The notes under the pieces are model-generated. The model did no database searches. It saw only the letters and a list, made by a program, of their open reading frames with translations, and had not been told where the DNA came from. A DNA stretch of 64,000 nt from Faecalibacillus sp. (lineage in GTDB: Bacteria > Bacillota_I > Bacilli_A > RFN20 > CAG-826): assembly GCA_963588175.1 (NCBI GenBank), contig CAVAGP010000002.1:51515-115514 (forward strand). Direction: 5' to 3'. Positions 2,366-55,260 of this stretch are shown here, one piece after another; the stretch's first letter is position 1; every line of letters starts with the position of its first letter. A program made the translations under genes and the position numbers.

Positions 2366-2507
2366 GATGATCGACCCCCTTGTCTTCTGCATAGTACTCC
2401 ACAACAATTTTCCGAAGTAGATTACTTATCGTTCTCTGCTCTTCTGCCGCTTGCTTTTCTAACTTTGCCATTGTCTCATCGTCCAAAGCAACGGTCTTCC
2501 GTATCAT
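2358..2507 (-). CDS. Ribbon-helix-helix (CopG/Arc/MetJ-like) small DNA-binding protein, first gene of par operon
   Basis: 49-aa ORF below the ORF-track cutoff. Own translation: MIRKTVALDDETMAKLEKQAAEEQRTISNLLRKIVVEYYAEDKGVDHHE. It shows the beta-strand/helix/helix pattern typical of RHH repressors. GGAGGTG SD 5 nt upstream; stop overlaps the parA ATG. Confidence 0.6.
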   Translation of the reverse strand: MIRKTVALDDETMAKLEKQAAEEQRTISNLLRKIVVEYYAEDKGVDHHE

Positions 2508-16011: not shown

Positions 16012-16162
16012 AACAATTGTAGAAACCAAACTGGTCTGTATCGAATTTCAGCCTTTATAGATCAGAACGGTTAAAAGACGGTTGCTTCTTATCTCGCACG
16101 AGCGGAATGGAGGCGTGTATATTGCTCCTCGCGGGAAATACTCTCGAAGGGAGGAAGATTAC

Positions 16163-16282
16163 ATAAACATTTTGAATATTCTCTTTGTAACGGTTATTAT
16201 GAATCTCGATAAGATTTGTAATGTAATCATGTTCGTGCTTTATATGCACGACCGATACCATGCTAAGAAGAATAAAGAGTGA
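16163..16282 (+). CDS. Small hydrophobic peptide (type I toxin candidate, copy A; start codon position is ATA)
   Basis: GGGAGG SD (16149..16154). The codon 8 nt downstream, where copy B has ATG, is ATA. Reading from there gives (M)NILNILFVTVIMNLDKICNVIMFVLYMHDRYHAKKNKE. In-frame TTG at 16172 and ATG at 16199 lack an SD. Confidence 0.35.
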   Translation: MNILNILFVTVIMNLDKICNVIMFVLYMHDRYHAKKNKE

Positions 16283-16382
16283 GCCGTCTGCTGCAACAGA
16301 ATGGCTCACTAAGTCGTATGAAAATTCACACTTCATACAATTTAAGTAAACTATGATTTGGTAGCAACCGTCTGGTTTCTAC
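16268..16382 (-). ncRNA. Antisense RNA (type I antitoxin candidate), copy A
   Basis: Promoter TTGACT (16417..16412), 17 nt, TATAAT (16394..16389), +1 about G16382. Terminator GUGAGCC...GGCUCAC (16309..16279) followed by UCUUUAUUCUUCUU. Fully complementary to the last 5 codons and the 3' UTR of the toxin mRNA. Confidence 0.55.
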
Positions 16383-16480
16383 ATTTTTATTATATATTTT
16401 TTCACCCAATAAGTCAAGTAAAAATTAGAAAAAGTGCGTACTTTTTGAAATAAAAGTACGCACTTTTCTTACATGTTTCG

Positions 16481-19400: not shown

Positions 19401-22400
19401 GAATCTGCTTTGTCTTTATATCGACCTTGAACGGTAGTCTCTCTGCCAATCTGTCCGATTGTATAAGAGATGCCTTTACGATATAAATTCTCAGAACGTT
19501 GCCAACGTTGCTGATTCATTGCTGATTCAGCTTTTGTAATTACGTTGTCTATTTTACGTTCTACACGGTCTAAACGAATCTCAATCCAGTCGAAGAACTT
19601 ACCAAACCACTCTTGAAAGTTTGATAAGACTTTATCTTCTCCAGAACCAGAAGCAAACGACATACCTCCGACAGTACCGTTAGCGTGAGATGCGCCGATG
19701 AATTTGCCGTAAGAAGATGCTTTGCCAGAGTTTAAAAGGTCACGAGTCTGTGCTGCATTAAAGACAATATCGTCTTTTTGCAGATCTGCAAATCCGGGCT
19801 TGCCTCCGTTATGAATAAACCAACGACCTTTTCTGGAAATAATCTCCGGGCCGACCTCATTGACGAGAGCACGTCCGCTCTTACCGACGCTCCAGTCCCC
19901 GCTTGCTTTTGCTGGTCCGCCAATTTTTGTTGAACTTTCAGAAAATGCAGTTCCAGTAGCAGGACTAGTACCGTCGCCACCTATAAAACGTTTTACGTAG
20001 TTTACGATAGTCGTCATAGGAGAAGGAGCTTCTTGACTACCCTTGGTGTAATTAACCTCAGTATTCTTTGGGTCCGGCGTTTGTTGCAAACCTAGATTAT
20101 AATCTACTTTTGTATCTTTTGGATCAGGATTAATTTGGTTTCCTTTAGTATAATCTACCGGGGTGGTTTTGCGAGAAGGGCTTTCCTGAGATCCTTTAAT
20201 GTAATCCATTAAGGCATTCATAGCGTCAGGATTGTCCTGATTAGCTTTTATATAACTCAGTAAAGCATTCATAGCCACTGGATCATCTTGATGCTCGATG
20301 ACATAATTCATCAATGCTTCTTGATCTTCAGGATCTTCTTGGCTTTGAACAGCATAATCGAGCAAAGCTTGTTCTTCTTCAGGAAGTTCTTGGCTAGCTA
20401 TTTCGTAATTAACTTTGACAGTTTCATCTGTTTCGGAAGTTTTTTTATTACTTTGTCTACAACCACTAGAAGGATCATCTTTAGAGGTTTTAGCCTTGTA
20501 CTTTTTTGTGCCCTCTTCAAAAGAATCATCAGAAACATCGTCTTTATCTTTGTTTTGACGTTTACGTTTATTCTTTGAATACTTTCGCTTAGAAGTGTCG
20601 CCGCCAAGTTTCTTAATATAATTGTCCGCGTCTTCACTTAATGATATGAGTTCTGCGAAAAGACCGTCTTTCTTAGCTTCTTTTTTCCATTGAGCAACAG
20701 ATTTACCACTCTTCTTAGCAGCCGCAAAACTATCTTGCACCGCAAGCTCTGCTTCTTGAATCTTGCGTTTATATTGCTGAATATCTGTTATCTGGTCATC
20801 AGATAAAGTATTAATATTCTTTCCCATAAAATCGCTAAGATTTTCAGCAACGTTGCGAGAATTAACATAAGAATCATTAACCCAGCTCTTATACTTACCA
20901 TTCTTAGTTTTGAATGAGTTGTGATCTCCGCTTTCCATCGTCGAGAGATCTCTCTCATTGGTAGAGATATATTCCGCAAGAGTTTCGTGGGAATCATTAC
21001 CATTGTCAATAAGGTTTTTTAATCTAACCCTCTCTGCGCGAATTTGTGCTTCGTCTAATTCGGCTTTAATCTTGACTGCAATTTCCGGATCGAACTTTGA
21101 AAGGTCTCCATCAAGACCATCAAGATACTTTTCAAACTCATCAATATCATTCGACAAAGCGTCTCTAGTATCAGAGTCTTCGATGCCATCTCTTGCGGTT
21201 TTCAATTTATCCAAATTAGAAGATGCTTCATCATAAGCTTTTGCTACACTCTGAATGTTTTTAATTTTGAAACTGCCGTACTTGGTGATGTCATAATCGC
21301 CGAGACGACCCATAATAGCTTCAACAGAGCGGACCGAGATGCCGAGCTGATCAGCAACTTCTGCGGTATTTTTAAACTCTTTACCAGAGGAAGCTAAATC
21401 GCTTACAAAGTTATTTATACCAGACTTGGTGTACTCACCATCGTCGTTGGTTGTGAAATATCTCTGAAGTTTTTCATAGTTATCAGCAAAGTCACGCTTG
21501 TATTTTTTACCGTCAGGATCAATGAATTTAGCAATGGTCTTGAAGTCGTCTGTGCCAACAAGACCTTTGTCATACAAATCCTTTCCTGATTTCAGATAGT
21601 TACCAAGGTTCTCAAAGTCAGCACCTTCATTTGCTGATTCAGCGGCTTTTGCAATGCCTTCTAAGGTGCCATCTACTTCTTTGGCTTTTTTCTGAGCTTT
21701 AGTAGCAGACTCAGATAAATCATCAAAATACCGATTAAGATTCTCTACATTTTCAACACCAAGATCATCTAATGAAATACCAAGAGCGGCAACTACATCA
21801 GAAGCTTTCTTGCCGCTCTCAGCCATCTTGTCTAATATTGTACTTTGCAACTGTGAACGTGAATCCGTGCCGTTATTAAAGAAGCTTTGTAAAGTTTTTA
21901 GATCTTTCTGAAGAGGAGTGGCATTAGATGTATCGCTTTCATATTTAAGAAGAGCAGCATTCGCTGCATCAAATGCTTTTTGGTAATCATCATTCCAGTA
22001 AGTTGAACCAATGCCCTTAGCAAGTTCATCTCTCGCTGTCTGAATGTCGGCAGCTTCTGTTGCGGCTTCAGCTTTTAAATCAGAAAGTTTTTGCTTCTGA
22101 TCGGAAATCCGTTTGTCTAAGTCATCAGTGTTTTCGCCTTTGTCTTGGAGCTTCTGCCTTTCGTTTTCCAACTTCGTAAGATCTTTTTCTGCTAACTTCA
22201 TCTTTTTGAGATTAGCAGTCAGATCTTCAATAACATCTCTACGACCTGAGAATGATCCGCCATTAGCACCAGTAATCTTTTCACCGGAGATTGCTGCACT
22301 TTCATTATGATAAACCTTTGAGTCATCCGTTAAAAGCTCATAATTCTCGTCAACAGTATCTTTTAAATCTGCTTTTGCTTGAGCTTCTAATAATGTCTTC

Positions 22401-23140
22401 TTTCTCTCAAGTTCAGCATTTTGTTGCTTTAACGTTTGGAGTTCAGCCTCATCAGTCATACTAAGACGACCGTTTGCAGATAACTTTTGCAATTCTTCTA
22501 TACGAGATTGCGTAGTTGATAACTCATCATTCACAGAACTCAAATCAGATTGCGTGCTTGCATACGTAGACGCAGCGTCTTGAGCCGCCTGTTTGTTGTT
22601 GTCATACTCATGTAGTTTATCCGAAATAGCACCAATAGCAATTCCAATTGCAGCCATTGCAGCCATCTGCGGTAAGACAGAGACTAAGGTGGCTTTTAAT
22701 CCAGATAAGACAGTTCCAAAGGTGCTAAAAGATGTAGATACTTTTCCAGAAGAAACATTTTGAAATTGCTTTTCAGCTTTCGCAAGTTCCTTCGAGGCTT
22801 GGATTCGGTTTTGTCGTGCCGCATTATATTTCTCAGTAGCCTTAGCTTGTTCTTCAATGGAGGACGTAGGAGATTGAAGAATGTTACGTAAATTATTTTC
22901 GGCACTAGTCAAATCCTTGGCTGCCTTAGCGCTCTGGCTCCTTGCTCCATCAAGATTAGTCTGCGCTTTGGTTAAAGCATCTTGAACGATAAGTTGATTC
23001 TTTTGTGCATCTGTTAAAGAACTGCTTTCAACCACAACTTTCTTTTGTGAGTCTGAAAGTCCATCCAAACTTTTTCGGACGATATCAATATTTTTCTCGC
23101 CTTTGATGCTTTTTATTGCTTCTCCAGTTGTTTTTAGTGA
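16481..23140 (-). CDS. Tape measure protein, exon 4 (C-terminal 2219 codons)
   Basis: 2220-aa ORF-track ORF that begins only with an in-frame TTG, with no SD and no ATG for about 155 codons. Long coiled-coil, Ala/Lys/Gln-rich sequence with a hydrophobic segment (VLPQMAAMAAIGIAIGAI), typical of TMPs. The in-frame join to exon 3 is proposed at 30574|23140. Confidence 0.7.
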   Translation of the reverse strand, partial: SLKTTGEAIKSIKGEKNIDIVRKSLDGLSDSQKKVVVESSSLTDAQKNQLIVQDALTKAQTNLDGARSQSAKAAKDLTSAENNLRNILQSPTSSIEEQAKATEKYNAARQNRIQASKELAKAEKQFQNVSSGKVSTSFSTFGTVLSGLKATLVSVLPQMAAMAAIGIAIGAISDKLHEYDNNKQAAQDAASTYASTQSDLSSVNDELSTTQSRIEELQKLSANGRLSMTDEAELQTLKQQNAELERKKTLLEAQAKADLKDTVDENYELLTDDSKVYHNESAAISGEKITGANGGSFSGRRDVIEDLTANLKKMKLAEKDLTKLENERQKLQDKGENTDDLDKRISDQKQKLSDLKAEAATEAADIQTARDELAKGIGSTYWNDDYQKAFDAANAALLKYESDTSNATPLQKDLKTLQSFFNNGTDSRSQLQSTILDKMAESGKKASDVVAALGISLDDLGVENVENLNRYFDDLSESATKAQKKAKEVDGTLEGIAKAAESANEGADFENLGNYLKSGKDLYDKGLVGTDDFKTIAKFIDPDGKKYKRDFADNYEKLQRYFTTNDDGEYTKSGINNFVSDLASSGKEFKNTAEVADQLGISVRSVEAIMGRLGDYDITKYGSFKIKNIQSVAKAYDEASSNLDKLKTARDGIEDSDTRDALSNDIDEFEKYLDGLDGDLSKFDPEIAVKIKAELDEAQIRAERVRLKNLIDNGNDSHETLAEYISTNERDLSTMESGDHNSFKTKNGKYKSWVNDSYVNSRNVAENLSDFMGKNINTLSDDQITDIQQYKRKIQEAELAVQDSFAAAKKSGKSVAQWKKEAKKDGLFAELISLSEDADNYIKKLGGDTSKRKYSKNKRKRQNKDKDDVSDDSFEEGTKKYKAKTSKDDPSSGCRQSNKKTSETDETVKVNYEIASQELPEEEQALLDYAVQSQEDPEDQEALMNYVIEHQDDPVAMNALLSYIKANQDNPDAMNALMDYIKGSQESPSRKTTPVDYTKGNQINPDPKDTKVDYNLGLQQTPDPKNTEVNYTKGSQEAPSPMTTIVNYVKRFIGGDGTSPATGTAFSESSTKIGGPAKASGDWSVGKSGRALVNEVGPEIISRKGRWFIHNGGKPGFADLQKDDIVFNAAQTRDLLNSGKASSYGKFIGASHANGTVGGMSFASGSGEDKVLSNFQEWFGKFFDWIEIRLDRVERKIDNVITKAESAMNQQRWQRSENLYRKGISYTIGQIGRETTVQGRYKDKADSVLNRAVSKGLINNKQAKAIRKQVKDGSLNIKSYGDRMQEVIKDYKEFYDKSLDAADAIQELKDKVLDYVDALEELHEAQMQAKLDVIDSLDDINTSTQNYTAAAKAAQLRYANDNLEKQNDAYKTRVEETRKDYGRAQNSAENAAKQQSKAKRHKGTSKSEYKKYKKAVKSAQAAIKSGKEVSSSDLSVIENYAKKTTGKTSAKNANKLAAKIIKYNAERQALDEAKLARDVAKAENNADIISNIQDIYDAMDDEANDQIDLLESQADVATTLEEKNKLLKQASSLYDTMLSNDDAEIAEMASGVNSAAKKIAKSTAYGKAINSASAATRKKVEALVQECKRRAASGEDITDDMISQLAEYNSKGYVWRSFYNACLQYHQYYQAKLQAEAQKKIDEASFKAEKEALAYQAFQNIQESYERQQQQYDNEASIIDAQQSKNQALGYGDSAKYYTAKQKAQLAQNESMRQELNALQASLSDLTVGSDEYYDALDAINDLTVSLIEGEAAVAEYQQSINQLNWDRFDELQDRISNLTSETDFLIDLLSYKDLQDKDTGNDTEYGKAVKALHVQNYQTYTQQAKDYAEAIKELDEQFADDSLNKDYLDRRQELVEAQQDAIIAAQDEKESLIDLVQDGYDAQLDALDKLISKYSDVLNAQKDIYDYQQNIKDITKDITTYQKQLQAYQYDDSEEAKQRIQQANQNLMNAQQDLSDAEYDQYISAAQDLLSDLEDELSDHFDDIIDSLRDNADDLINSIDANSADVSSTIKEATDSVGYTMSDAMTKIWGTDSEYGTISASVSAAVTGIKTLSSDINAAADKIAYAVTNKNPEKNGPTDKDPFEITGFASGGVVGNSKKILSRNGDTDFTINTLKAGERVLTPEQNQNFEKLVSFAPDLMDAVAELPKVSIPVDLQSNVSQIDISSPINIEFTLPNVQNYSEFMNEMQKDKRVEKWLTSMLVNPLTGKSSMSKNNIRF

Positions 23141-23156
23141 CAAAATGTGATATATT
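23128..23156 (+). promoter_or_regulatory. Candidate promoter of zinc-ribbon gene (straddles the TMP exon 4 boundary)
   Basis: TTGTTT (23128..23133), 17 nt, TATATT (23151..23156) with an upstream TG (extended -10). Confidence 0.4.
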
Positions 23157-23176
23157 ATATAAAGGAGGAAAACAAT

Positions 23177-23662
23177 ATGAGAAAAATAATTTGCAAAGAT
23201 TGTAATGAAGAATATGACGTAAATGACAGCAAATGCAACAAATGCGGCTGTTTAACATCAGACACAAAAGAATATTATAAAATTAAGTATTCGGAGAGTT
23301 TTGAATATGTATTTGATATGTGTCCTGTCATATGCGAGTGTAATAAAAACTATAGTGACCAGAATATATACATTAGAGATGATGCGATATATACCTATTG
23401 TCCAATTTGTCAAAATGATCGCGTAATTGCACCATTAGACCTCGAAAGAGCCAAACGTTTTAACGATGTGCGAAGAAAAGGTTTTTATATGGCAGAACAA
23501 GAATCTCAAAACAAATGCGTTCCACATTGTCCAACATGCGGTTCAACCAACATAAAAAAGCTTAGTACAACCAAACGTATTACTCACGGTGCGATGTTTG
23601 GATTGTTCAGTAAAACCGCTCGTTCTCAGTGGGAATGTAAGAATTGCGGTAATAAATGGTGA
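23177..23662 (+). CDS. Multi-zinc-ribbon protein (unknown function)
   Basis: Start moved to ATG 23177 (AAAGGAGG SD). Four CxxC pairs: CKDCN...CNKCGC, CPICQ, CPTCGS...CKNCGNKW. It is the only plus-strand protein gene in the island. Confidence 0.6.
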   Translation: MRKIICKDCNEEYDVNDSKCNKCGCLTSDTKEYYKIKYSESFEYVFDMCPVICECNKNYSDQNIYIRDDAIYTYCPICQNDRVIAPLDLERAKRFNDVRRKGFYMAEQESQNKCVPHCPTCGSTNIKKLSTTKRITHGAMFGLFSKTARSQWECKNCGNKW

Positions 23663-24133
23663 GAAAAAGCGACTGTAAATACAGTCGCTTTTTATATGTA
23701 GAAATAAAAGAGTATTCAATGTTGCAATTTCAGATTTAGACATATGAACAATTTTGTTTGGATGTATCGAATTTAATGAATGGTATATCTTATATTCCAT
23801 CAAAATATTCTGTAATTTTTCCAAAGATAATTTATCTATGGTTCTTCTGTAATTTAATAATTCCTCACATAGTTCGACTGTAAAAGTATTATTAAGTTGA
23901 AGATAACTATCCTTTTGAATGACAGTTTCAATAGGATCATCTGAATAAACCACGATATTGCTCCGGAATGCAGCCTGATATTCTTTGCCTTGTAACGAAT
24001 CCATATGTGCAATTTCAATGTAATCATCATTAATCGCTACTATTAAACAAGGATGTTCTTTATCAGCAACTACACCATCATTATTAAAACGTACTCGCAA
24101 CCAAAGTACTTGTCCAATCTCTAAATCTTTCAT
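23543..24133 (-). CDS. MazF/PemK-like (SH3-barrel) toxin candidate partnered with Panacea-like gene 1
   Basis: N-terminus GQVLWLRVRFNNDGVVADKEHPCLIVAINDDYIEI resembles the MazF/PemK G.i..v.f.......K.RP.lVv block. ATGA overlap with the upstream gene. The ORF runs through the 23664..23693 terminator and 120 nt into the convergent gene. Confidence 0.4.
   Translation of the reverse strand: MKDLEIGQVLWLRVRFNNDGVVADKEHPCLIVAINDDYIEIAHMDSLQGKEYQAAFRSNIVVYSDDPIETVIQKDSYLQLNNTFTVELCEELLNYRRTIDKLSLEKLQNILMEYKIYHSLNSIHPNKIVHMSKSEIATLNTLLFLHIKSDCIYSRFFSPFITAILTFPLRTSGFTEQSKHRTVSNTFGCTKLFYVG
23664..23693. terminator. Bidirectional intrinsic terminator
   Basis: A5-AGCGACTG-taaata-CAGTCGCT-T5 (stem 23668..23675 / 23682..23689). 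Confidence 0.65.
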
Positions 24134-24624
24134 AAGTCAATTCTGTCTATAACCTTTAACATATCGGAATACTGTTCGACATATTCCTTATGATGTCCTT
24201 CGGTGTCCATTTTCTGTTCTGCTCCAGTACAATTTCGTTTCTCTTGCCAAGCAGAATCTTCATGAGAAAGTTCGATTAATTCTTCTAATGAAGCATTTTG
24301 CAGAACATAAAAAATCTTGTCTAAAAAACAACGGACAGAATTATCTGCTTCGGTAAAAGATTTTGAGTTTGAAAGCAAGGAAGAATAGTTTCGATAGACA
24401 TCGTTTACTACTGCTCCATTAGCATAAGCAAGCAAAGGGTCTGCAAATAAAAGATTACCAGTCTTAGCGTAGAAAAGGTTTTGCGAAATGTGTAAATATT
24501 TATTCAGCCTAGCATTGCCAGAATAAAAATTATGGCCATTCCGACATGTTAAATCTGTAGTGAAAATATTATGATTAGGATCTTTTGAAAGATAATACAA
24601 AGCAATATCTCTTGCAGAATACAT
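24130..24624 (-). CDS. Divergent Panacea (DUF4065/SocA-like) antitoxin-domain protein 1
   Basis: Start moved to ATG 24624 (AAAAGGAGG SD). MYSARDIALYYLSK...LNKYLHISQNLFYAKTGNLLFADPLLAYANGAVVNDVY is weakly DUF4065-like. Own promoter TTGACA (24796..24791), 17 nt, CATAAT (24773..24768). Confidence 0.45.
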   Translation of the reverse strand: MYSARDIALYYLSKDPNHNIFTTDLTCRNGHNFYSGNARLNKYLHISQNLFYAKTGNLLFADPLLAYANGAVVNDVYRNYSSLLSNSKSFTEADNSVRCFLDKIFYVLQNASLEELIELSHEDSAWQEKRNCTGAEQKMDTEGHHKEYVEQYSDMLKVIDRIDL

Positions 24625-24809
24625 AACAAAACCTCCTTTTCTATATGAAAATGGCTCCATAAAAGTAAGAATGGGGATAGTTTTCACTAGCCCCACCCGT
24701 CATCTTCACTCGGTTATTTTTTGTTTACCGACGAGTCGGAACCGTCACTCGTCATCTTCTTTACTATATTATGAAGCAAAATATGTTAAATGTCAATAGG
24801 AATTTTTTA

Positions 24810-25298
24810 TTATGTAGAATTATCTGTAGTCTGAGTCAGTTGAGATTCAATAGCAGACACATCAGGAAATATAATTTTTACGCCTTTACGATGAAGAACT
24901 AATACTCTTTGAGCTTTAGCCAATAACTTTGCTTCAGCAACTTCGTCCAAACGAACAGATTTGCCATGATTAAAATATTCATCATTAACATAATCTTCTG
25001 TTACTGGACACATATTTTGAATCAAGAATGCCTTTTTATATCCGAGAACATATGCAAAGAAAATAGTATCACAACGATGATGTCTTTTCATCTTTTGATT
25101 ATAAATTCTTTTGAATTTACTTACCTGAGAAGAAAATGGAATCATCCAATATAAGCCAGTAGTTGGATCTTGAAAGGCATAATAACAAGCTCTTCCGTGC
25201 GGCTGACCGTTTTGTTCTTCTTTGTTTTGCATCAAACAAGGATCAGAAAAAGTAGAAAAATATTGGTCTTTGAGAAAATAAAAATGTCCAGTTTTCAA
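24810..25298 (-). CDS. ToxN/AbiQ-family type III toxin (endoribonuclease) candidate
   Basis: FYFLKDQYFSTFSDPCLMQNK...GLYWMIPFSSQVSKFKRIY...AFLIQNMCPV resembles ToxN/AbiQ blocks. Preferred start is TTG 25298 (GAGG SD 7 nt upstream); an alternative ATG lies at 25328. Preceded by tandem RNA-type repeats. Confidence 0.65.
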   Translation of the reverse strand: MKTGHFYFLKDQYFSTFSDPCLMQNKEEQNGQPHGRACYYAFQDPTTGLYWMIPFSSQVSKFKRIYNQKMKRHHRCDTIFFAYVLGYKKAFLIQNMCPVTEDYVNDEYFNHGKSVRLDEVAEAKLLAKAQRVLVLHRKGVKIIFPDVSAIESQLTQTTDNST

Positions 25299-25347
25299 AA
25301 TAAATACCTCATATGAAAATAGCTCCATTCGATAAAGAACGGAGCTA

Positions 25348-25450
25348 CAAGATTTGAACTCGACCTTCTTTGAGTTGCGTATCGAGAAGCAACAGACATT
25401 TGGACTCGACCTTCTTTGAGTTGCGTATCGAGAAGCAACAGACATTTGAA
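25348..25450 (-). ncRNA. ToxI/antiQ-like repeat RNA (type III antitoxin candidate): 2 full 46-nt repeats plus a partial one
   Basis: Units at 25359..25404 and 25405..25450 (ctcgaccttctttgagttgcgtatcgagaagcaacagacatttg[g/a]a), plus a partial copy at 25348..25358. Directly upstream of the ToxN-like ORF on the same strand. Confidence 0.65.
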
Positions 25451-25467
25451 ATCTTTTCTGTATCAAT

Positions 25468-25496
25468 AGTATATGCTATATCTTCAGAAAAATCAA
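25468..25496 (-). promoter_or_regulatory. Promoter of the type III module
   Basis: TTGATT (25496..25491), 17 nt, TATACT (25473..25468). Confidence 0.5.
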
Positions 25497-25539
25497 TATT
25501 CTATGGGTAAAAATTGAACATTTTTATTATGTAAGTTAT

Positions 25540-26427
25540 TTATTTGCCATCATCAATACTGGAGATATTTCCTGATCCATTAGCAACTTCGTCTACAAGC
25601 CGATATTGATGATTGCCAATATTAATTTTTTCTGGAAAAGACATTTTCGAAACACCAAGAGAGATAATTGTAATCACAGCCACAAAAGCTAAAACTCCTA
25701 TACTGGCTATAATTTTAGCATTCCACTTTCTCTTCCCATTTTTGTCTCGAATAACTTTGTCGTTAATTTCTCTCAAAAAATCTATTAGGATCGACACCAA
25801 AAGGACAAAAACTAATCCAATTACGATAGCAATAACCACGAGATCTAATGTTTTGGCTTTGCCAAGATTGTTTAAGACAGAAGTCGAAAAGGTAAATGCT
25901 CCTACAAAAGCTAACATAATAGAAGCAAAGATTCCCAAGATTGTGATATACTCCTTTTCTACGCCCTTAATCTCATTATGAAGGTCTACTTTCGCATCTA
26001 CAATTCGCTGTGCAAAAATGTCATTCATATTTTCGATTTGGTAATTGACCAATTGCGTATGGTCGTATATTTTTGTAACTATTTTTACAACATCATCATT
26101 AATACTATCTTCTTTGCTCAGAGAATAAATAAGCAGATTCTCAACATTTGTAAGAAAGATAGCTCTTTTGTCCGGCTCTAAATTAAACAAATAATTACTA
26201 ATTTCAGAATATGGAATCCTAGCTATTTTATCTTTTGTATTCACATAGAGATCAATCTGCTTAATTGTTTTCTCTGGACGATATTTTTTCGTTTCGATTG
26301 TTAGACAGTAGCAAATACTATTTATCCTTCGTTTGGTTGTATTATACTTCTTAGAATCAGTACTAAGAAATTCGTCAGAAGAATCATCTACTTGTTGAAG
26401 TGAATCAAGAGGATTTGTGTCAAGCAT
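25540..26427 (-). CDS. Membrane protein, toxin/effector candidate partnered with Panacea gene 2
   Basis: 295 aa. A soluble N-terminal ~165 aa is followed by three hydrophobic helices (ILGIFASIMLAFVGAFTF, LVVIAIVIGLVFVLLVSILI, IIASIGVLAFVAVITIISL). 8-nt overlap with the upstream antitoxin-like gene. Confidence 0.5.
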   Translation of the reverse strand: MLDTNPLDSLQQVDDSSDEFLSTDSKKYNTTKRRINSICYCLTIETKKYRPEKTIKQIDLYVNTKDKIARIPYSEISNYLFNLEPDKRAIFLTNVENLLIYSLSKEDSINDDVVKIVTKIYDHTQLVNYQIENMNDIFAQRIVDAKVDLHNEIKGVEKEYITILGIFASIMLAFVGAFTFSTSVLNNLGKAKTLDLVVIAIVIGLVFVLLVSILIDFLREINDKVIRDKNGKRKWNAKIIASIGVLAFVAVITIISLGVSKMSFPEKINIGNHQYRLVDEVANGSGNISSIDDGK

Positions 26428-26899
26428 GGAAATACTCCTTTATAGCTTTGGGTGAGATCTCAGTGTTCTTCCCTTGCTGATAAGCATTCTTCCACGGAGC
26501 TTGGCGATGAGTAATAGCTACTAAATCAGTTGCAGAGTAATCAGAAAATTTATCGACGACTGCTTCAATCATATGTTTATCCGTTTTTGTGATAACGTCA
26601 TCATCGTATTCCAGTATCCTTGAATTCCAAATATTATCCTCATCAACATCCACGATAAACGAAGTGGTTGGAATATCTCCACTCCCGAATTGCTTATACC
26701 TTTTATATGCTTCTGGAACAACTGGACCAAAATCCCATGCTATAATTTTTTCTTTAAAACATTGCTTATCGGCGACAATCAAGAAGTACGCCTGAACGAA
26801 ATATAACATTTTCTGAAGTTTTAAGTTAGAAATACCATAGTCTTTTTTATTGCTGTAATCAATTATATATTTACAAACATCTAATACATCATAGCTCAT
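26420..26899 (-). CDS. Panacea (DUF4065/SocA-like) antitoxin-domain protein 2
   Basis: VLDVCKYIIDYS...ISNLKLQKMLYFVQAYFLI...EKIIAWDFGPVVPEAYKRYKQFG...HRQAPWKNAY. Own promoter TTGACA (27018..27013), 17 nt, TATACT (26995..26990). The 5' UTR ends TTTTCATATAGAAGAGGAGGT, nearly identical to that of gene 1. Confidence 0.7.
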   Translation of the reverse strand: MSYDVLDVCKYIIDYSNKKDYGISNLKLQKMLYFVQAYFLIVADKQCFKEKIIAWDFGPVVPEAYKRYKQFGSGDIPTTSFIVDVDEDNIWNSRILEYDDDVITKTDKHMIEAVVDKFSDYSATDLVAITHRQAPWKNAYQQGKNTEISPKAIKEYFHA

Positions 26900-27033
26900 C
26901 TACTACACCTCCTCTTCTATATGAAAATAACCACACCGTAAGATGTGGTTATTAATACGATTTTGGTAGGCTTCGTAACCTCTATTAACAGTATATGCTA
27001 GAATAATATAAATGTCAATATAATTATATTATC

Positions 27034-27486
27034 TTAATCATTTTGAGCTTCTTCATATTTTTTGGCATAGTAGTTTCTCATTGTTTTGCATGAGATAGGA
27101 TCTGTACATACTTCCCACGCATAAGCTTGATGACGCGCTTCTTTCCACGGGTGTTCTGAACAAGCGAGCCACTCAAGTTGATCTCCGGTGAATTCTCCAT
27201 ATGTGTTATATACTGCATTTAAAACATATAACGTGTCATCTGAAAATAATGAGTAATCACAATTCTCTTTAGGTATTTCTTTCCATCCATATTTGGAGAA
27301 TTGCCGATAGAGGGAAGGAACTACAGGGCCATGAACCCACGCCTGAATTTCATCCTCAAACAACCGATCTCCAGCAAACAGAGCACAACTCCACGCCTGA
27401 GCATAATAACAAAGTTTTTGAAGTTTTTTATGCGTCATTGAATCTTTACTCAAGAACCATTTGGCAATATCAGCAACGGCATACAT
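27034..27486 (-). CDS. Panacea (DUF4065/SocA-like) antitoxin-domain protein 3
   Basis: VADIAKWFLSKDSMTHKKLQKLCYYAQAWSCALF...DEIQAWVHGPVVPSLYRQF...SEHPWKEAR. SD TAAGGAG; starts 12 nt after the stop of the 148-aa ORF. Confidence 0.75.
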   Translation of the reverse strand: MYAVADIAKWFLSKDSMTHKKLQKLCYYAQAWSCALFAGDRLFEDEIQAWVHGPVVPSLYRQFSKYGWKEIPKENCDYSLFSDDTLYVLNAVYNTYGEFTGDQLEWLACSEHPWKEARHQAYAWEVCTDPISCKTMRNYYAKKYEEAQND

Positions 27487-27498
27487 AATAGAATCTCC

Positions 27499-27945
27499 TT
27501 AATGATTGTAAGCAGAATAATCGAAATCAAAAGCGATTACATGCATAAGATTAGGTTGATATATATCGTCTTTACATATAATACGATATTTCTGCTGTCC
27601 AAAACGAAACACAGTAAGTTTTGTTTCATCCGTAACTAAGTTCTTTTGAATGCAAATAGACTGGATTTTATTTGACATTTGTTTTAGGGGAATTTTTTCT
27701 AACCCAGCAGTTTTGCCTCGATCTCTTGCTTCGGTTACTGTTATCTGAGATAATTCATATAGTCTTTTGTGTAAATGTTCATATGCCTTGCATTTATCAG
27801 AAGTGCTTTTCCGGAAATATTCAAAGCCATGAGAGGAGTCGAAACTCATATAAGAGAATCCAAAACAGATGTTTAGGGGAGACTGACCTAAATTGCCAGA
27901 GGATAGTTTCGGCACAATCCTTCGTTTGTCTTTAGCTTTCATCAT
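27499..27945 (-). CDS. Toxin candidate (possible RelE/ParE-like fold) flanked by two Panacea genes
   Basis: 148 aa. The C-terminal part LTVFRFGQQKYRIICKDDIYQPNLMHVIAFDFDYSAYNH resembles the RelE-superfamily ...yRiiy......v..i...H..Y pattern (weak). Overlaps the stop of Panacea gene 4 by 14 nt. Confidence 0.35.
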   Translation of the reverse strand: MMKAKDKRRIVPKLSSGNLGQSPLNICFGFSYMSFDSSHGFEYFRKSTSDKCKAYEHLHKRLYELSQITVTEARDRGKTAGLEKIPLKQMSNKIQSICIQKNLVTDETKLTVFRFGQQKYRIICKDDIYQPNLMHVIAFDFDYSAYNH

Positions 27946-28402
27946 CTACATAATTTTCCCTGAAGTATTTTTTCATAGTGTCTCGGCTAATAATCTGGTT
28001 CAGGCGCTTACCATGATTGGTAGCTTCTATCCAAGGAGATTCTTCATGAGTCCGGTTCCTTAATGCCCATGCAGAATATTGCCCAAACACATCAAATACT
28101 TGTGTCAAGAATATTGAATCATCCTTAGAAAATTTTCGAGCATCTTGAATATCTTCGTCTGTCAATTGTAAATTATACGGATCAGAATAAGCATAGTAAA
28201 CTTCTTTGACAACAGGACCATGTTCCCAAGCTAAGATATCTTCATTGAATAAAGATTTGTTCTTAATAGCCAAATAAGAACCTTCGGCGTAATATAATAA
28301 TTTCAAAAGTTTGAGAAGTGACAACGGTTCTCCACCAAGATCGTCTTGTGCTTGTTGGTTATGATATATAAACCAATGAGCAACATCAATCGCACGATAC
28401 AT
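27932..28402 (-). CDS. Panacea (DUF4065/SocA-like) antitoxin-domain protein 4
   Basis: AIDVAHWFIYHNQ...LSLLKLLKLLYYAEGSYLAI...EDILAWEHGPVVKEVYYAY...HEESPWIEAT. GAAGAGGAGG SD. Confidence 0.75.
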   Translation of the reverse strand: MYRAIDVAHWFIYHNQQAQDDLGGEPLSLLKLLKLLYYAEGSYLAIKNKSLFNEDILAWEHGPVVKEVYYAYSDPYNLQLTDEDIQDARKFSKDDSIFLTQVFDVFGQYSAWALRNRTHEESPWIEATNHGKRLNQIISRDTMKKYFRENYVDDES

Positions 28403-28465
28403 AACAAGACCTCCTCTTCCTTATATGTTATTATATTATGAATCAGATCATCAAAAACATCAAGA

Positions 28466-28497
28466 CAAAATATAAAAATAGCGGGGAAATCCCCCGC
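28466..28497 (-). terminator. Intrinsic terminator (minus strand)
   Basis: GCGGGGG-auuu-CCCCGC followed by UAUUUUUAUAUUUUG on the minus strand. Confidence 0.6.
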
Positions 28498-28531
28498 CGT
28501 TCGGTGGACTAGGGTCTTACGACCAGCCCAA

Positions 28532-28714
28532 TCAGTTCGAACTGTTATCTTGCTTGCGAAATGCAAATAATTCTAATTTAGCTCGCGCCTTCTCCAAAGA
28601 AGGGGAGTGTGGTTGATAGTTCTGAAAAGAACTATTATCAAGAATTGATTTCAGACTCTCGAAAGAAGCGGAGTCTTTTATATAGAATTCTTTTGTGATA
28701 GAAGATGTTGCCAT
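28532..28714 (-). CDS. 60-aa protein downstream of Panacea gene 5 (partner of unknown nature)
   Basis: CGAGGTG SD 5 nt upstream of the ATG, 12 nt after the stop of the upstream gene. Hydrophilic; no motif recognised. Confidence 0.45.
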   Translation of the reverse strand: MATSSITKEFYIKDSASFESLKSILDNSSFQNYQPHSPSLEKARAKLELFAFRKQDNSSN

Positions 28715-28726
28715 GAAAACACCTCG

Positions 28727-29167
28727 TTATTCTTCCGATAATCCTCCATAATACATTGCCATGCTTTCTTGTGTAATAATATTATCTGAACCAACACCCA
28801 TAGGCAATCCTTTTCGAGCTTCATTCCAAGGCGCTTCCATATGGGTAAGCTGACTTAGCCATTGGGCATTATGACAAGCGTAATGGTCTAACACAATATC
28901 TATAGTCTCTTTCTGAGAATCTGACAAAACAGATATATCTCCCGGTTCGTCGTTCTCAGTTACTGCAAATATTCCTTGCGTCTCAAAGAACAACTCTCGA
29001 CACACAGGACCATTTGCCCAAGCATGAAATTCCTCTGGGAACAATGGCTCGTCATCCCATACAAGAGACCATGCTTGACAATAATAACAAAGTTTTTGCA
29101 ACTTCATTGTAGAAAGCTTTCCTTGTTTGTGTAGAATGTATTTTGCTACATCAAATATACTTGCCAT
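28727..29167 (-). CDS. Panacea (DUF4065/SocA-like) antitoxin-domain protein 5
   Basis: IFDVAKYILHKQGKLSTMKLQKLCYYCQAWSLVW...EEFHAWANGPVCRELF...THMEAPWNEAR. Confidence 0.75.
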   Translation of the reverse strand: MASIFDVAKYILHKQGKLSTMKLQKLCYYCQAWSLVWDDEPLFPEEFHAWANGPVCRELFFETQGIFAVTENDEPGDISVLSDSQKETIDIVLDHYACHNAQWLSQLTHMEAPWNEARKGLPMGVGSDNIITQESMAMYYGGLSEE

Positions 29168-29602
29168 ATGCTCCCCGTCCTATCGGTTGATATTATATTC
29201 TGCTTTACAGAAATAATAAAATGCGTGTTACAATGCTGGCTGTCAGCCCAGACGTTAATGACGCCTGTAATCAAATCATCGTATATCCTCGATGCAGGCT
29301 GCGTGTCCTTTCGAACACAGATATGTGCGTGGTACTTATCCTCCCCAGCCGGAGCACAGCTTTAACGTGTCGCCACACGGAGAACGTTTCGATCTCTTGA
29401 ATACTGAGAAGGAGACTAGCACAATACAGTGCCATAGTCTCCTTCTACGATTGACTTTGCCGTTATCAGGAAACCCCTCCAGATCCCACATCTGGAGGCA
29501 TTGGCAGGCATTGTCGTCGCTTACTGACTATGCTCAACGCGGAGCATCCCTGATTTTACACGTCAGCGTCGTGGATTTTCCTTTAGAATTTAATTTAAGC
29601 TC

Positions 29603-29631
29603 TTGACAAGGAAAATCCAATCTGTTATTAT
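29603..29631 (+). promoter_or_regulatory. Promoter of type I toxin-like mRNA, copy B
   Basis: TTGACA (29603..29608), 17 nt, TATTAT (29626..29631). Predicted +1 at G29638. Confidence 0.6.
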
Positions 29632-29772
29632 CGAAGAGTGGAAGCCACCGACCCGACTTGGATTGGGGGGGTGGAACGGTTCCGAAGACGGTTGCCTGTC
29701 ATCTCGCAAAGCGCGGAATGGAGGCTTGCATATAGCTCTTTGTGGGAAATATTTCCGAAGGAGGACGAACAC

Positions 29773-29871
29773 ATGATTACTACCCTGAGTATCACCGGAA
29801 ACATTTCCAGCATTCTCGGTTTCGCATTCGCGATCTTCGTGTTTACATACCAGATAAAGAAAAAGAAGTGA
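29773..29871 (+). CDS. 32-aa hydrophobic peptide with Lys4 tail (type I toxin candidate, copy B)
   Basis: AAGGAGG SD (29759..29765), 7 nt, then ATG. MITTLSITGNISSILGFAFAIFVFTYQIKKKK has a single TM-like helix and a cationic C-terminus. Confidence 0.55.
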   Translation: MITTLSITGNISSILGFAFAIFVFTYQIKKKK

Positions 29872-29972
29872 ACTGTCCGCCACAATAGACAGCTTCACAG
29901 GATTTATGAAGTTACCAGCTTTATAAATCAAAAATAAAAATCACAAATCTGTAGCAACCGTCTGGTTTCCAC
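29855..29972 (-). ncRNA. Antisense RNA (type I antitoxin candidate), copy B
   Basis: Promoter TTGACT (30007..30002), 17 nt, TATAAT (29984..29979), +1 about G29972. Hairpin GUGAA(G)CUGUC...GACAGUUCAC (29898..29868) followed by UUCUUUUUCUUUAU. Overlaps the toxin stop and KKKK codons. Confidence 0.55.
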
Positions 29973-30060
29973 ACTTTTATTATAAACTTCTTATTAACAA
30001 AAGTCAATATGTCCCCACACTTTGAAACAAAAAGTTTTTATAAAAGATTGAATTTATTTG

Positions 30061-30090
30061 TTGACTTTGACGATAAACACCATGTATAAT
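30061..30090 (+). promoter_or_regulatory. Promoter of small plus-strand RNA
   Basis: TTGACT (30061..30066), 18 nt, TATAAT (30085..30090). Confidence 0.5.
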
Positions 30091-30096
30091 ATACAC

Positions 30097-30178
30097 AGAT
30101 GGTAAGTATCACTTACAATCGACAAAACTCTAACGAGAGTGGTTGTGCTGCATTCAGTATGACCACTCTTATTTTATT
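30097..30178 (+). ncRNA. Candidate ~80-nt sRNA antisense to the 3' periphery of the TMP intron core
   Basis: Downstream of the promoter lie hairpin GUAAGU-auc-ACUUAC and terminator AGAGUGGU (30136..30143) / ACCACUCU (30162..30169), followed by UAUUUUAUU. No ORF with an SD. Confidence 0.45.
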
Positions 30179-30276
30179 CCCATTTGCGGCAGGGAAGAGC
30201 CGAATCACATTTTAGAACAAACATTATTAGCTGCACATCTAAGGCGTATGCAACTAAGAGGGTGGGTGCTCGTTGG

Positions 30277-30573
30277 GGATGAATACCATTTAAAAAGCTT
30301 ACCTCATATTATTGAGATGTGCTTTACCTAAACGTTTGGTATCCGTCCTGCTGATTGCAGTCAATGCATCATATCTTTTTAAACCATGCCATATATCATT
30401 ACTGATTCTGTTTTGGCATATAATACTCTTGCTTCCCAGCATTTACCCCTCTAGGTATTTTAAATCATCAAGAACCCCTATGTTAATATTACTTGTTCAC
30501 AACACCATTTTTATTGTGTTCTTGTAATAAAGTAGACTCGCTATACAACCCTATGTCTTTTGGGTCAATCAAA
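30277..30573 (-). ncRNA. Group I intron catalytic core (TMP intron 3)
   Basis: - P1: exon UCAUCAAGAAU (30584..30574) with guide GUUCUUGAUGA (30476..30466), 11 bp including U.G.
- P3: UACCUA/UAGGUA (30457..30452, 30330..30325).
- P/Q boxes: AAUGCUGGGAAG / GCAAUCAGCAGG (30443..30432, 30358..30347).
- P7: GGAUACC/GGUAUUC (30344..30338, 30287..30281).
- P8: AUCUCA/UGAGGU (30318..30313, 30306..30301).
- P9 hairpin lies just outside this span at 30257..30227. Confidence 0.7.
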
Positions 30574-31179
30574 ATTCTTGATGAATGCAGCAATACCGCT
30601 GCCAACAGCTATGGTTCCTAAAGAACCCATTGCACTAGTTATCTGATTAATGACTTGTAAGAATTCATTTGCACCAGAAACAGCACCTTTTAGAAAATCT
30701 GAATCTGCTAAGTTAGAAGAAGTCTCTTGGAACGTAGCCTTTAACTGACCAAGACGTCCTTGAATAGACTCCATATAACGAGCATTTTCTTGCTCGGCAC
30801 TACCTGCGGATTCGTACTCCGCTGTCTGATATGCTTCTTTAATCATATCAACATTATTCAGAGCAGCAGCAAGTGCGTTTGCTTGGTTCTTACCAGCGAG
30901 AGTTTCAAGTAATGCAGCCTGATCTATGTCAGACAGACTATCCCAAACCTCGCCGATACCGACGATAATATCATACATATTTTTAAATGTTTTACCGTCG
31001 GATTCCATAATGTCAAAGCCTGTCATGCTTTGCACAATGTTTTGTAATTTAGACGAGCTTGTGACTACATTATCTGTGTCTTCGCCCATTGTCTCAAGTT
31101 CAGTAGATGCACCACGGATACGAGCAGATACTGTTTTCCACATATTGCCTGTACGTGCTGCATCCTGTACGACAGCATT
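30574..31179 (-). CDS. Tape measure protein, exon 3
   Basis: Begins NAVVQDAARTGNMWKTVSARIRGASTELE and ends with the hydrophobic segment ...SLGTIAVGSGIAAFIKN. 606 nt, in phase with exons 2 and 4. The ORF-track ORF 30565..31143 is its 3' part. Confidence 0.8.
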
Positions 31180-31611
31180 CTATTGTATTCAATAAGGTCG
31201 TAAATCTTATTATGTATTATTTACATCATTATGTTTCCATAATGTATAGGTCATCTTTTCACCTGCGCCATTATGCGATCAGGGTACACTCTTTCCATTT
31301 AAGGGGTTTTCACCCACGCCATATACGATTGCGCCGTACTCCTATTGACTAATATAGTCCCGACACGGGGATGACCGTCGAACCTCTACTCTTACCGCAA
31401 AGCAGTAAGGCTTGGCTGCTGATTGCCAATTGCATAAATCTTTAGCACCCGAAGGCTTTTTTTCAGCATAGATTCATCTCAATATTTTTTTCTGCTTTCG
31501 CAACATTCACGTTTGTCTTTTCGACTGCGTTGTAGTATATTGAGCTTTATGGGTTCCCAGCAATTAAGTGTATTCTTAGGCACATATTTCTATATACCGA
31601 ACCTCTATCGA
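31180..31611 (-). ncRNA. Group I intron (TMP intron 2, 432 nt, no ORF)
   Basis: 5' splice site GGAACU|UCGAUAGA. Guide GGUUC pairs with exon GAACU (U.G at the site). P box AAUUGCUGGGAA, Q box GGCAAUCAGCAGCC. P7 is GGUCAU/AUGACC. Ends ...CAAUAG| with a terminal G. Confidence 0.8.
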
Positions 31612-31729: not shown

Positions 31730-32016
31730 CAATTGTTACTTTTCAAATTGAAAAGGCTAGGTCATTTCTGCCTAGCTCTCACGTTTTATATTTTTGATTA
31801 TTGCGTGAGGTCGGACTGTATATTCATCCTATAAGAGCAGGAGGATAACTTCAGTAAAATGTATTACTACATTAAACCCGGCAGTCTCTACGGATTCTAT
31901 AATTTTAAATCATAGTCTTTCCTCGGTCTGAACCATCTCTGGCCTTTAACCGATATAGTTATCGTCAACTCTAAAAAGAGAAGCATATGTGTTGCCACAT
32001 ATGGAGGCATCTGTTT
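31730..32016 (-). ncRNA. Group I intron (TMP intron 1, 287 nt, no ORF)
   Basis: 5' splice site AAUGAGGU|AAACAGAU. Guide GCCUC pairs with exon GAGGU (U.G). Q/R-like AAUCCGUAGAGACUGCC and S-like AUAUACAGUCCGA (P7 is GACUG/CAGUC). Ends ...AACAAUUG|. Confidence 0.8.
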
Positions 32017-51440: not shown

Positions 51441-51724
51441 CGTTATGGACTATCTCTTGCCCATGCCTTAAAAGGTTTAGGGTGTGGCACTACGGAGAGG
51501 GGAGTTGCACCCCACCCCTCTTATCATTATGAAATTTAGTCTCTAAAGGTTCTGAGTTAATATTTCAGTTTCCCACGGGATTCTCTTAGACAGCAGTATT
51601 CCCCGTTAGCTTGCCTTCTAGCTATCAGTTACTATAGCTCCTAAACGTAAGACAAACACCCTGCAATTACAGGTTCACCACGTAAGCGACATAGGTTTCC
51701 CTATGAAGTGACAGCGACCAGCGT
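51441..51724 (-). ncRNA. Group I intron (polymerase intron 1, 284 nt, no ORF) inserted in the DFD|GD catalytic motif
   Basis: Exon ends GAU UUU GAU|. The intron starts ACGCUGG... and ends ...CAUAACG|GGC GAC. It shares the blocks GAAAUUUAGUCUCU, CCUCUUAUC, GC(A/G)CUACGGA and GGACUAUCUCUU (plus-strand reading) with intron 2. Confidence 0.8.
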
Positions 51725-53251: not shown

Positions 53252-53301
53252 CAAGAGAGATAATTGAAACTTTTTTACTTTGTATAATGTAGGGGCGAAG
53301 A

Positions 53302-55054: not shown

Positions 55055-55260
55055 ATTCCTGCCACTCAAAATGTGTTTAAACATACTCAAACACATCGAG
55101 AAATTGAAGTCCTTACGGATACTTCTCACTGCTTCAATGTGTATGCTTTGGCGATTGCAAATAATGCGCTACTCACAAGTTCTTGTACACTCCGCAGTCG
55201 TTAATTCCCGAAATAGCCTTCGGTACATACTTACGTTTGCTTGATTATGCAATCTCGTAA
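55055..55260 (-). ncRNA. Candidate omega/reRNA of TnpB (3' end of element)
   Basis: Hairpins CCGAA-ggcuau-UUCGG and GAAGU-auccguaagg-ACUUC lie downstream of the tnpB stop. Placement is typical for the TnpB guide RNA scaffold. Boundaries are not determined. Confidence 0.35.

Follow-up and report, generated by a model that had tools for sequence, protein, structure and literature searches.

The 64-kb window of DNA analysed here (contig CAVAGP010000002.1 of a Faecalibacillus sp. assembly, positions 51,515 to 115,514) carries phage genes among which a split tape-measure gene encloses an island of about 7.4 kb (30565..23143). Five Panacea antitoxin genes, PanA1 to PanA5, lie in this island. Three of them form complete pairs with a candidate toxin, two are orphans, and a small antitoxin-like gene next to them also appears to stand without its partner; a CptIN type III toxin-antitoxin (TA) module and a type I-like locus accompany them. 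Three versions of the island are found on backbones that are 87-91% identical at the nucleotide level: version A in the window, version B in contigs L013 and L014, and version C in L116-L125 (23 contigs). We think it probable that the island is a promoter-driven accessory TA hotspot for exclusion or maintenance, with orphan antitoxins that perhaps cross-neutralize foreign toxins. Coordinates are positions in the window, and the genes of the Panacea set and their partners are all on the minus strand.

Panacea genes and their partners

An earlier sequence-only reading had placed five Panacea-like open reading frames (ORFs) at 24130..24624, 26420..26899, 27034..27486, 27932..28402 and 28727..29167, and had named a hidden Markov model (HMM) search with PF13274 as the check. 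The ORFs are exactly there, and in that search all five score above the Pfam gathering score of PF13274 (SocA_Panacea; 25.7 bits): PanA1 (164 aa) with 31.0 bits (E 5e-7), PanA2 (159 aa) with 80.7 bits (E 2e-22), PanA3 (150 aa) with 71.6 bits (E 1e-19), PanA4 (156 aa) with 70.5 bits (E 3e-19) and PanA5 (146 aa) with 60.3 bits (E 4e-16). PanA1, which has the lowest score and also matches phrog_1281 (E 1e-15), is the most divergent copy, as had been said of it. A six-frame HMM scan of the whole window returned exactly these five Panacea genes and no sixth. The claim that such a density is unusual agrees with the survey of Kurata et al. 2022 (PMC8832971), in which PanA-carrying taxa mostly have one copy, 12 taxa carry five copies and a further 5 exceed that number, and in which PanA was found in only 17 phages. 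Because the five proteins share only 24-38% pairwise identity, they represent an assembly of old paralogues and did not arise by recent tandem duplication.

The same reading had given each PanA a different partner, which is true of PanA1, PanA2 and PanA4 but not of PanA5 and PanA3. In the FlaGs approach (PMC8832971) a PanAT pair consists of genes at most 100 nt apart whose association recurs in at least two further genomes or species. Judged in this way, PanA1 pairs with P196 (also in L011 and L012) and PanA2 with P295 (also in L126 and L127); the pairing of PanA4 with P148 recurs in one unrelated element (L015) and in the sister phage, and PanA5 and PanA3 have no partner of this kind. The partner families of PanA5, PanA3 and the 60-aa protein discussed below left no trace in any of the six frames of the window.

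PanA1 is likely the antitoxin of the candidate toxin P196 (23543..24133), as the pairing is conserved elsewhere: L011 and L012 carry a PanA 49% identical to PanA1, followed by a P196 homologue with 57% identity. The mechanically called ORF of PanA1 reaches 24696; the ATG at 24624 carries an AAGGAGG ribosome-binding site. P196 had been described as MazF/PemK-like, and this description failed every test. The protein has no match in Pfam at E<=0.1, PF02452 included, and none among PDB profiles, and hhalign gave a probability of 0.07% against a five-sequence MazF/Kid alignment; the MazF assignment was rejected on these results. The AlphaFold2 (AF2) model of P196 has a mean predicted local distance difference test (pLDDT) value of 47, too poor for fold comparison. 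P196 consists of a conserved core of about 142 aa (24133..~23710) and a 56-aa tail. Its homologues are 139-152 aa long; P196 lacks a stop codon where they end, and the additional ORF stretch (23543..23710) runs through the bidirectional terminator that closes the island (23668..23700, inverted repeat aaaaagcgactgta..tacagtcgcttttt) into the convergent zinc-ribbon gene, to which it is antisense. Transcripts stopping at this terminator would carry P196 without a stop codon and could be tmRNA-tagged. The read-through may reflect either control of toxin dosage or gene decay.

PanA2 overlaps the gene for P295 (25540..26427) by 8 nt. P295 had been described as a 295-aa protein with three transmembrane (TM) segments, and hydropathy bears this out (hydrophobic segments 159-185, 188-223 and 234-265); it is a candidate membrane toxin with a cytoplasmic N-domain, and it matches phrog_5763 (E 2e-16). 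Homologues were found in only two GenBank phage records, a Helicobacter prophage (L126) and a Listeria phage (L127), and in both the gene is preceded by an overlapping gene confirmed as PF13274; the viral-contig scan contained no relatives of P295. PanA2 and P295 thus form a conserved pairing. In version B the corresponding allele of P295 is about 30% identical over the N-terminal ~150 aa and about 96% identical in the TM part, and the PanA gene in front of it, PanA2', is 66% identical to PanA2. The antitoxin and the N-domain of its candidate toxin have thus been altered jointly from one sister phage to the other. A standalone Panacea domain is reported to touch a membrane toxin in the stretch before its TM helices (Ernits et al. 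2023, PMC10440598), and by analogy the joint swap fits this contact. The joint swap of an antitoxin and the N-domain of its toxin alone points at an interaction surface.

PanA4 overlaps P148 (27499..27945) by 14 nt and, with PanA3 as the third gene, forms an operon behind a promoter-like TTGATG-17-CATAAT (28435..28463, minus strand; 9/12 match), which over 36 nt shares 72% similarity with the promoter of cassette 1 (family D9). In L015, an unrelated integrative element, a PanA4 homologue with 59% identity is followed by a P148 homologue with 49% identity, and no PanA follows the latter. Because the homologues are paired there and no PanA comes after that of P148, the pair is PanA4:P148, with the antitoxin gene first. 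For the same reason PanA3 is unsupported as a second antitoxin of P148; that assignment is also disfavored by version B, where the gene after the P148 homologue is PanA2' with its own toxin. P148 had been called RelE-like, and this stood in part. On the AF2 model (pLDDT 71), all of the top 9 and most of the top 17 Foldseek matches in the PDB are HigB, RelE or BrnT (TM 0.36-0.54), whereas sequence profiles of Pfam, NCBIfam and the PDB gave no match. A RelE/HigB-like fold is plausible for P148 but weakly indicated and not established. A tblastn search of the GenBank phage records found no match to P148, and its exact sequence is not on record.

The two remaining PanAs are orphans. Relatives of PanA3 at 61-66% identity are directly followed by an overlapping gene for a protein of 184-206 aa in all 12 loci shown, and an allele with at least 90% identity in version C is followed by genes for a DUF5678 protein and a retropepsin-like protease. 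A six-frame scan of the window found none of these three genes. Since the constant partner of its 61-66% relatives is absent, PanA3 is an orphan with no partner of its own. PanA3 relatives in the viral-contig scan are only 36-37% identical. In the clade of PanA5, a partner of about 150 aa (the T150 family) lies downstream in 37 of the 69 analysable metagenome loci, and many of the closest relatives of PanA5 are without it. The six-frame scan detected no T150 remnant in the window, and PanA5 is therefore an orphan whose usual clade toxin family is missing. The T150 family shows a distant relationship to P148 (hhalign probability 72%, E 3e-5), and T150 and the tested 203-206-aa family members share a weak MAG6450-family signal.

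The gene next to PanA5 encodes a 60-aa protein (28532..28714) that had been listed as a PanA partner, an assignment that did not survive the family search. The protein belongs to a family of about 53 aa (MATSSITKEF..KLxTFVFR), for which a search of 1.8 billion representatives gave 13 relatives at E<=1e-3. Of 10 genome loci from metagenome-assembled genomes of Clostridia and Phascolarctobacterium, 8 have the family member as the first gene with a gene for a protein of about 180 aa directly after it, and in none of the 10 does a PanA lie beside it. As the family provides the upstream gene of another pair and is never adjacent to PanA in these loci, the 60-aa ORF was ruled out as the toxin of PanA5. 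The profile of the ~180-aa protein, which has no match in Pfam or NCBIfam, weakly matches TacT-type GNAT toxins (7f37, E 0.02; 6g96, E 0.14). No GNAT-like gene was found in the six-frame scan of the window, so that the 60-aa gene is not half of a TacAT-like pair here; it looks like an antitoxin-type gene whose partner has been lost. The two-gene module of a ~53-aa (MATSSITKEF...KLATFVFR) and a ~180-aa protein is conserved in L017-L025 (e.g., L018 2666..3387 and L019 4001..4716), from these Clostridia and Phascolarctobacterium genomes, and neither protein belongs to a Pfam or NCBIfam family. This module may represent an undescribed TA family.

Directly after the 60-aa ORF lies a DUF3800-XI RNA motif (28530..28483, minus strand; Rfam RF02975, 62.9 bits vs a gathering score of 37.8), which ends in an intrinsic terminator (28498..28480, minus strand) found by terminator scan. 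The copy in L013 (9422..9469) scores 72.3 bits. The function of this RNA class is not known (PMC5737381), and there is no DUF3800 gene within the island.

Leaders, the CptIN module and island turnover

The sequence-only reading had attributed near-identical promoters and a common leader end to cassettes 1 and 2 and had taken them as a sign of cassette duplication or shuffling. The promoters are TTGACA-17-CATAAT (24796..24768) and TTGACA-17-TATACT (27018..26990), both among the best 11/12 matches of the region. The shared leader end, TTTTCATATAGAA(A/G)AGGAGG, is present on the minus strand as ATTTTCATATAGAAAAGGAGGT at 24651.. and as ATTTTCATATAGAAGAGGAGGT at 26927... The cassette-1 promoter and its 143-nt leader (24625..24796) contain the direct repeat that had been noticed, GAAGATGACG(A/G)GTG at 24759..24746 and 24707..24694 (14 nt, 52 nt apart, unique in the window), as well as two hairpins and the shared end TTTTCATATAGAAAAGGAGG. 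In its 3' part this leader resembles the terminator region of CptI (76% similarity, family D8). In the leader of cassette 2, which together with its promoter spans 26900..27018, there is a hairpin (~26953..26927), and the shared end reads TTTTCATATAGAAGAGGAGG. The motif TTTTCATAT occurs four times on the minus strand in the 64 kb, three times at cassette leaders (24651, 25319 and 26927), and a joint of hairpin, TTTTCATAT and ribosome-binding site precedes PanA1, PanA2 and CptN alike.

Between cassettes 2 and 1, inside the interval covered by the earlier reading but absent from it, lies a module that we assign to the CptIN type III systems. The DUF3800-XI RNA, the type I-like locus and the two group I introns described below were likewise not noted in that reading. 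The toxin gene CptN (24810..25298) matches the endoribonuclease family model NCBIfam NF047359 with 187 bits (E 1.3e-55; cut-off 90). CptI (25311..25496), directly upstream of it, is composed of a promoter (25496..25468), tandem repeats (25450..25352) and a terminator hairpin (25348..25319), then TTTTCATAT. The repeats comprise 2.2 copies of a 46-nt unit with 96% matches (Tandem Repeats Finder score 191); the CptI of E. rectale has two repeats of a 45-nt unit (PMC4627078). A CptN-family toxin with tandem repeats and a terminator directly upstream of its gene is the arrangement of a CptIN system, and by family analogy the repeat RNA would form a pseudoknot, be cleaved by CptN and inhibit it.

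The three island versions on their near-identical backbones show the cassette shuffling that had been proposed. In the window the order is PanA5-P60-RNA, PanA4-P148-PanA3, PanA2-P295, CptI-CptN and PanA1-P196. Version B has PanA5-P54-RNA, PanA4-P150-PanA2'-P298 and CptI..., after which the contigs end; it lacks PanA3 as well as the cassette-2 promoter and leader, and its PanA5 with the 60-aa gene and its PanA4 with P148 are 95-99% identical to those of the window at the protein level. Version C retains the conserved 5' non-coding part, a remnant of about 60 nt from the 3' end of P295, and CptI. Its CptI promoter, repeats and terminator are 95.5% identical to those of the window and are joined via TTTTCATATAGAAAAGGAGGTT to the PanA3 allele; then follow the genes for the DUF5678 protein (85 aa) and the retropepsin-like protease (154 aa), with no CptN (L116 7693..9222). 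The CptI of version C, which serves as leader of the PanA3 operon, is thus a type III antitoxin RNA that a phage carries as an orphan. Because the same hairpin-TTTTCATAT-ribosome-binding-site joint precedes PanA1, PanA2 and CptN, the shared leader likely serves as a recombination joint, and the rapid turnover also involves recombination within homologous genes.

At the upstream end of the island lies a type I-like locus (29640..30007) with a plus-strand ORF for a hydrophobic protein of 32 aa (29773..29871, MITTLSITGNISSILGFAFAIFVFTYQIKKKK) that has a ribosome-binding site. A plus-strand promoter (29603..29631) faces a convergent minus-strand promoter (30007..29979), both with 11/12 matches, and the short minus-strand transcript would end at a terminator at 29894..29871. 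A second, paralogous locus is present at 16065..16402. Both loci have a conserved 5' untranslated region, a variable small hydrophobic ORF ending in lysines and a convergent antisense promoter, and neither matches an Rfam or Pfam family. Adjoining the type I-like locus upstream of PanA5 is a GC-richer stretch of about 450 nt (29185..29640) with no credible ORF. It is folded far more stably than shuffled sequence is (minus strand z = -5.3, plus strand -4.9), contains several perfect hairpins, is conserved in sister phages up to 29222 and has no Rfam match.

The gap in the tape-measure gene

The island had been described as lying inside a structural gene. This is loosely true: it is within the tape-measure locus, but between two ORFs and not within one. 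Its upstream border is the last exon of the N-terminal tape-measure ORF (30565..31179, minus strand; TIGR01760 tape_meas_TP901, E 5e-11), which ends in AAFIKNFD-stop, and its downstream border is the C-terminal tape-measure ORF (16481..23143, minus strand; 2220 aa), which has a TTG start and no Shine-Dalgarno sequence. A convergent gene for a zinc-ribbon protein with several CxxC motifs (23147..23662, plus strand) is the conserved resident of the gap, with homologues in L004, L007 and L116-L122 that keep its position and orientation; 34 nt lie between the zinc-ribbon gene and the C-terminal ORF. In the relatives L004 and L007 (40% protein identity) the gap (L004 10561..11382, L007 10573..11554) consists of AAFIKNFD-stop, about 450 nt of conserved non-coding sequence and the reverse zinc-ribbon gene, followed by the C-terminal ORF, and there is no island. 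Since these relatives share the split without the island, the split is older than the island, which fills a pre-existing gap. In L006 the tape measure is contiguous, a single ORF of 3356 aa.

The gap RNA of L004 and L007 (about 400 nt) is 80% identical between the two, whereas the flanking coding DNA is alignable only in the last 54 nt, and the hairpin at the stop codon is kept despite base changes. This is the pattern expected of a mobile or structured element, possibly an intron. The gap RNA of the window has no similarity to that of L004 and L007 past the first ~40 nt, and Rfam has no match in any of the three gaps. That the halves of the tape measure can be joined in frame is trivial, as any excision that begins ahead of a stop codon and finishes behind a start codon preserves the frame. 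We considered whether the whole island lies within a group I intron that joins the two halves; this is unproven. Rfam also missed the first of two introns demonstrated by comparison. As a separate possibility, the gap may be an intron-like element, with the tape-measure halves joined at the RNA level.

The two demonstrated introns belong to group I and interrupt the N-terminal tape-measure ORF on the minus strand (32016..31730 and 31611..31180). Each follows a 5' exon whose last base is U and has G as its own last base, and both are precisely absent from 87-91% identical sister phages (L013, L116), where the ORF is intact (748 aa). Rfam detects only the second, below threshold (31.4 bits vs 50). 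In another tape-measure interruption, L004 carries a 277-aa zinc-ribbon, endonuclease-like ORF (9128..9961; '...AVGTAFKT' / 'RIRAAKTELEE'). The tape-measure genes of this phage group appear to have been invaded repeatedly by mobile elements.

The backbone is probably that of an SPbeta-like phage of gut Clostridia, because L013 has Pfam matches to YomX, YomW and YomU and the window encodes a YonO-like polymerase with the fold of an RNA-dependent RNA polymerase (51701..53254; PF05183). The window also encodes an amidase. Elsewhere in the window, a 596-aa BspA-type leucine-rich-repeat protein (6659..8449) is encoded near lysis and tail genes, and an IS605 OrfB/TnpB gene (55245..56405, minus strand) with OrfB_IS605 and Cas12f1-like TNB domains has a RAGATH-18 RNA (55126..55198, 66.6 bits) immediately downstream of it, a position consistent with this RNA being the guide RNA of the gene product.

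Possible functions of the island

In the reading that we favor, the island would be a "moron" island made up of self-contained units that have a sigma-70-type promoter apiece. Its units would be three Panacea type II modules, a CptIN type III and a type I-like module, and three antitoxin-type genes without a cognate toxin. In a putative lysogen the complete modules would be expressed constitutively, and each PanA would bind and hold its toxin, P295 through the N-domain that precedes its TM segments; PanA is known to bind its toxin directly and specifically (PMC8832971). Superinfection or loss of the phage would release the toxins and lead to abortive infection or post-segregational killing, and the orphan antitoxins would widen protection against related non-cognate toxins of the host or of competing phages.

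Several observations weigh against this reading. Promoters were called by consensus match only, and the region contains 37 promoter-like sites vs 30.9 +/- 5.3 in shuffled sequence. P196 and P295 have no recognized toxin domain, P196, without a stop codon before its terminator, may be decaying, and the best Foldseek match of P148 has E 0.035 (probability 0.95), none reaching E<=0.001. PADLOC recognized nothing among the island proteins. Toxicity, neutralization and defense are attributed to the island proteins on the strength of the PanAT and type III literature, and the orphans could equally be functionless relics of deleted cassettes.

An alternative explanation, which we regard as unlikely, is that the island is a counter-defense arsenal, in which the PanAs (above all the orphans PanA5 and PanA3), the 60-aa protein and the CptI of version C act mainly as decoys against TA-based abortive infection of the host while the phage infects it, and the linked toxins are incidental or serve to retain the genes. 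The idea of antitoxin decoys, raised in the sequence-only reading, has become more plausible because PanA5, PanA3 and the 60-aa gene are orphans, and the repeats of the version C CptI without CptN resemble the pseudo-ToxI with which phage PhiTE reportedly escapes ToxIN. Chromosomal contigs from gut metagenomes pair PanA3-type antitoxins with toxins, which are possible targets, and all units face in the same direction as the late structural operon and would also be transcribed during lytic growth. However, no target toxin has been identified in the host, the orphans are only 61-73% identical to their paired relatives, translational coupling links three of the PanAs to a toxin, and natural PanAs are described as cognate-specific (PMC8832971). 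One form of this idea, doubtful but somewhat less so, pictures an "antitoxin pharmacy" in which orphan PanA5 and PanA3, the 53-aa-family antitoxin and CptI disarm TA-based abortive infection of the host or of rival phages, and such antidotes and complete TA cassettes are swapped into and out of the tape-measure gap at the leader TTTTCATATAGAA..AGGAGG. The locus would then document, as it evolves in nature, how Panacea proteins switch specificity.

It is improbable that the units serve mainly for addiction, killing cells that lose the phage genome and so stabilizing a possible plasmid-prophage. Classical TA logic fits any complete module, genes for a ParA-type ATPase (1586..2407; AAA_31, E 2e-41) and for a protein with a ParB domain (53917..55050) are present in the window, and no integrase was found among the scanned ORFs, which cover part of the window. 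SPbeta-type phages integrate, however, and phages commonly carry ParB-N proteins for unrelated reasons; one module would suffice, which leaves the orphans and the fast turnover unexplained. More improbable still is selfish accumulation, with the gap as a permissive recombination hotspot where TA cassettes gather and degrade without net gain for the phage, and the orphans and the stop-less P196 as wreckage. The three versions on near-identical backbones, the ~60-nt P295 remnant in version C, the lost stop codon of P196 and the partnerless PanA3 would fit this scenario. Nevertheless, all five PanAs, P148, P295 and CptN are intact and have ribosome-binding sites, version B retains PanA5 together with the 60-aa gene, and PanA4 together with P148, at 95-99% protein identity, and the orphan PanA3 allele is intact on 23 contigs. 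Sequence analysis alone does not separate these three explanations from the accessory TA hotspot that we favor.

Taken singly, the cassettes are new members of known families. Like published PanATs (PMC8832971, PMC10440598), the Panacea pairs have small standalone antitoxins, the antitoxin gene first, overlapping or closely spaced genes and mutually unrelated partners that include a membrane protein and an RNase-fold candidate; PanATs are known in prophages, and partner swapping is a hallmark of the family. The island, known here from sequence, differs in having five paralogues in 5 kb of one phage, two of the five without a toxin, a PanA-toxin-PanA operon, and swapping that is visible with its joints between backbones of 87-91% identity. 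The CptIN module agrees with described systems in its toxin model match and its layout of repeats and terminator (Blower et al. 2012, PMC3401426; Rao et al. 2015, PMC4627078). It differs in being embedded in a phage structural region and in that its promoter, repeats and terminator are reused, without CptN, as leader of a PanA operon in a sister phage. Prophage moron and defense hotspots, such as the P2/P4 hotspots and those of mycobacteriophage prophage-mediated defense, likewise have variable promoter and terminator units at a fixed site in a conserved backbone, with toxin-based cargo dominant; here, by contrast, the gap splits a tape-measure gene beside a conserved reverse zinc-ribbon gene, and the cargo consists almost wholly of TA types I, II and III and orphan antitoxins. 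Phage antitoxin mimics (T4 Dmd, which acts against RnlA/LsoA, and the pseudo-ToxI of PhiTE) resemble the orphans in being antitoxin-type genes or RNAs not linked to a toxin, but the orphans have no identified target toxin and stand beside complete TA modules and not alone. A megablast search of the island region against 50,697 GenBank phage records gave no match. What goes beyond published systems is the combination of five PanAs in 5 kb, two of them orphans, with adjacent TA types I to III, in a hotspot within a split tape-measure gene whose recombination joints are visible.

Panacea is the textbook example of an antitoxin domain with dozens of unrelated toxin partners. The exchange of these partners was previously inferred from deep phylogenies only, whereas the sister phages compared here, at 87-91% identity, expose the joints: some lie at the shared leader, and others are breakpoints within PanA2 and its toxin. 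With its five PanAs (two of them orphans) and three candidate toxins, this one genome offers a ready matrix of specificity and cross-neutralization, and the same gene set could show whether phages turn orphan antitoxins against TA-based immunity. The gap of the split tape-measure gene represents a hotspot for accessory genes in large gut phages.

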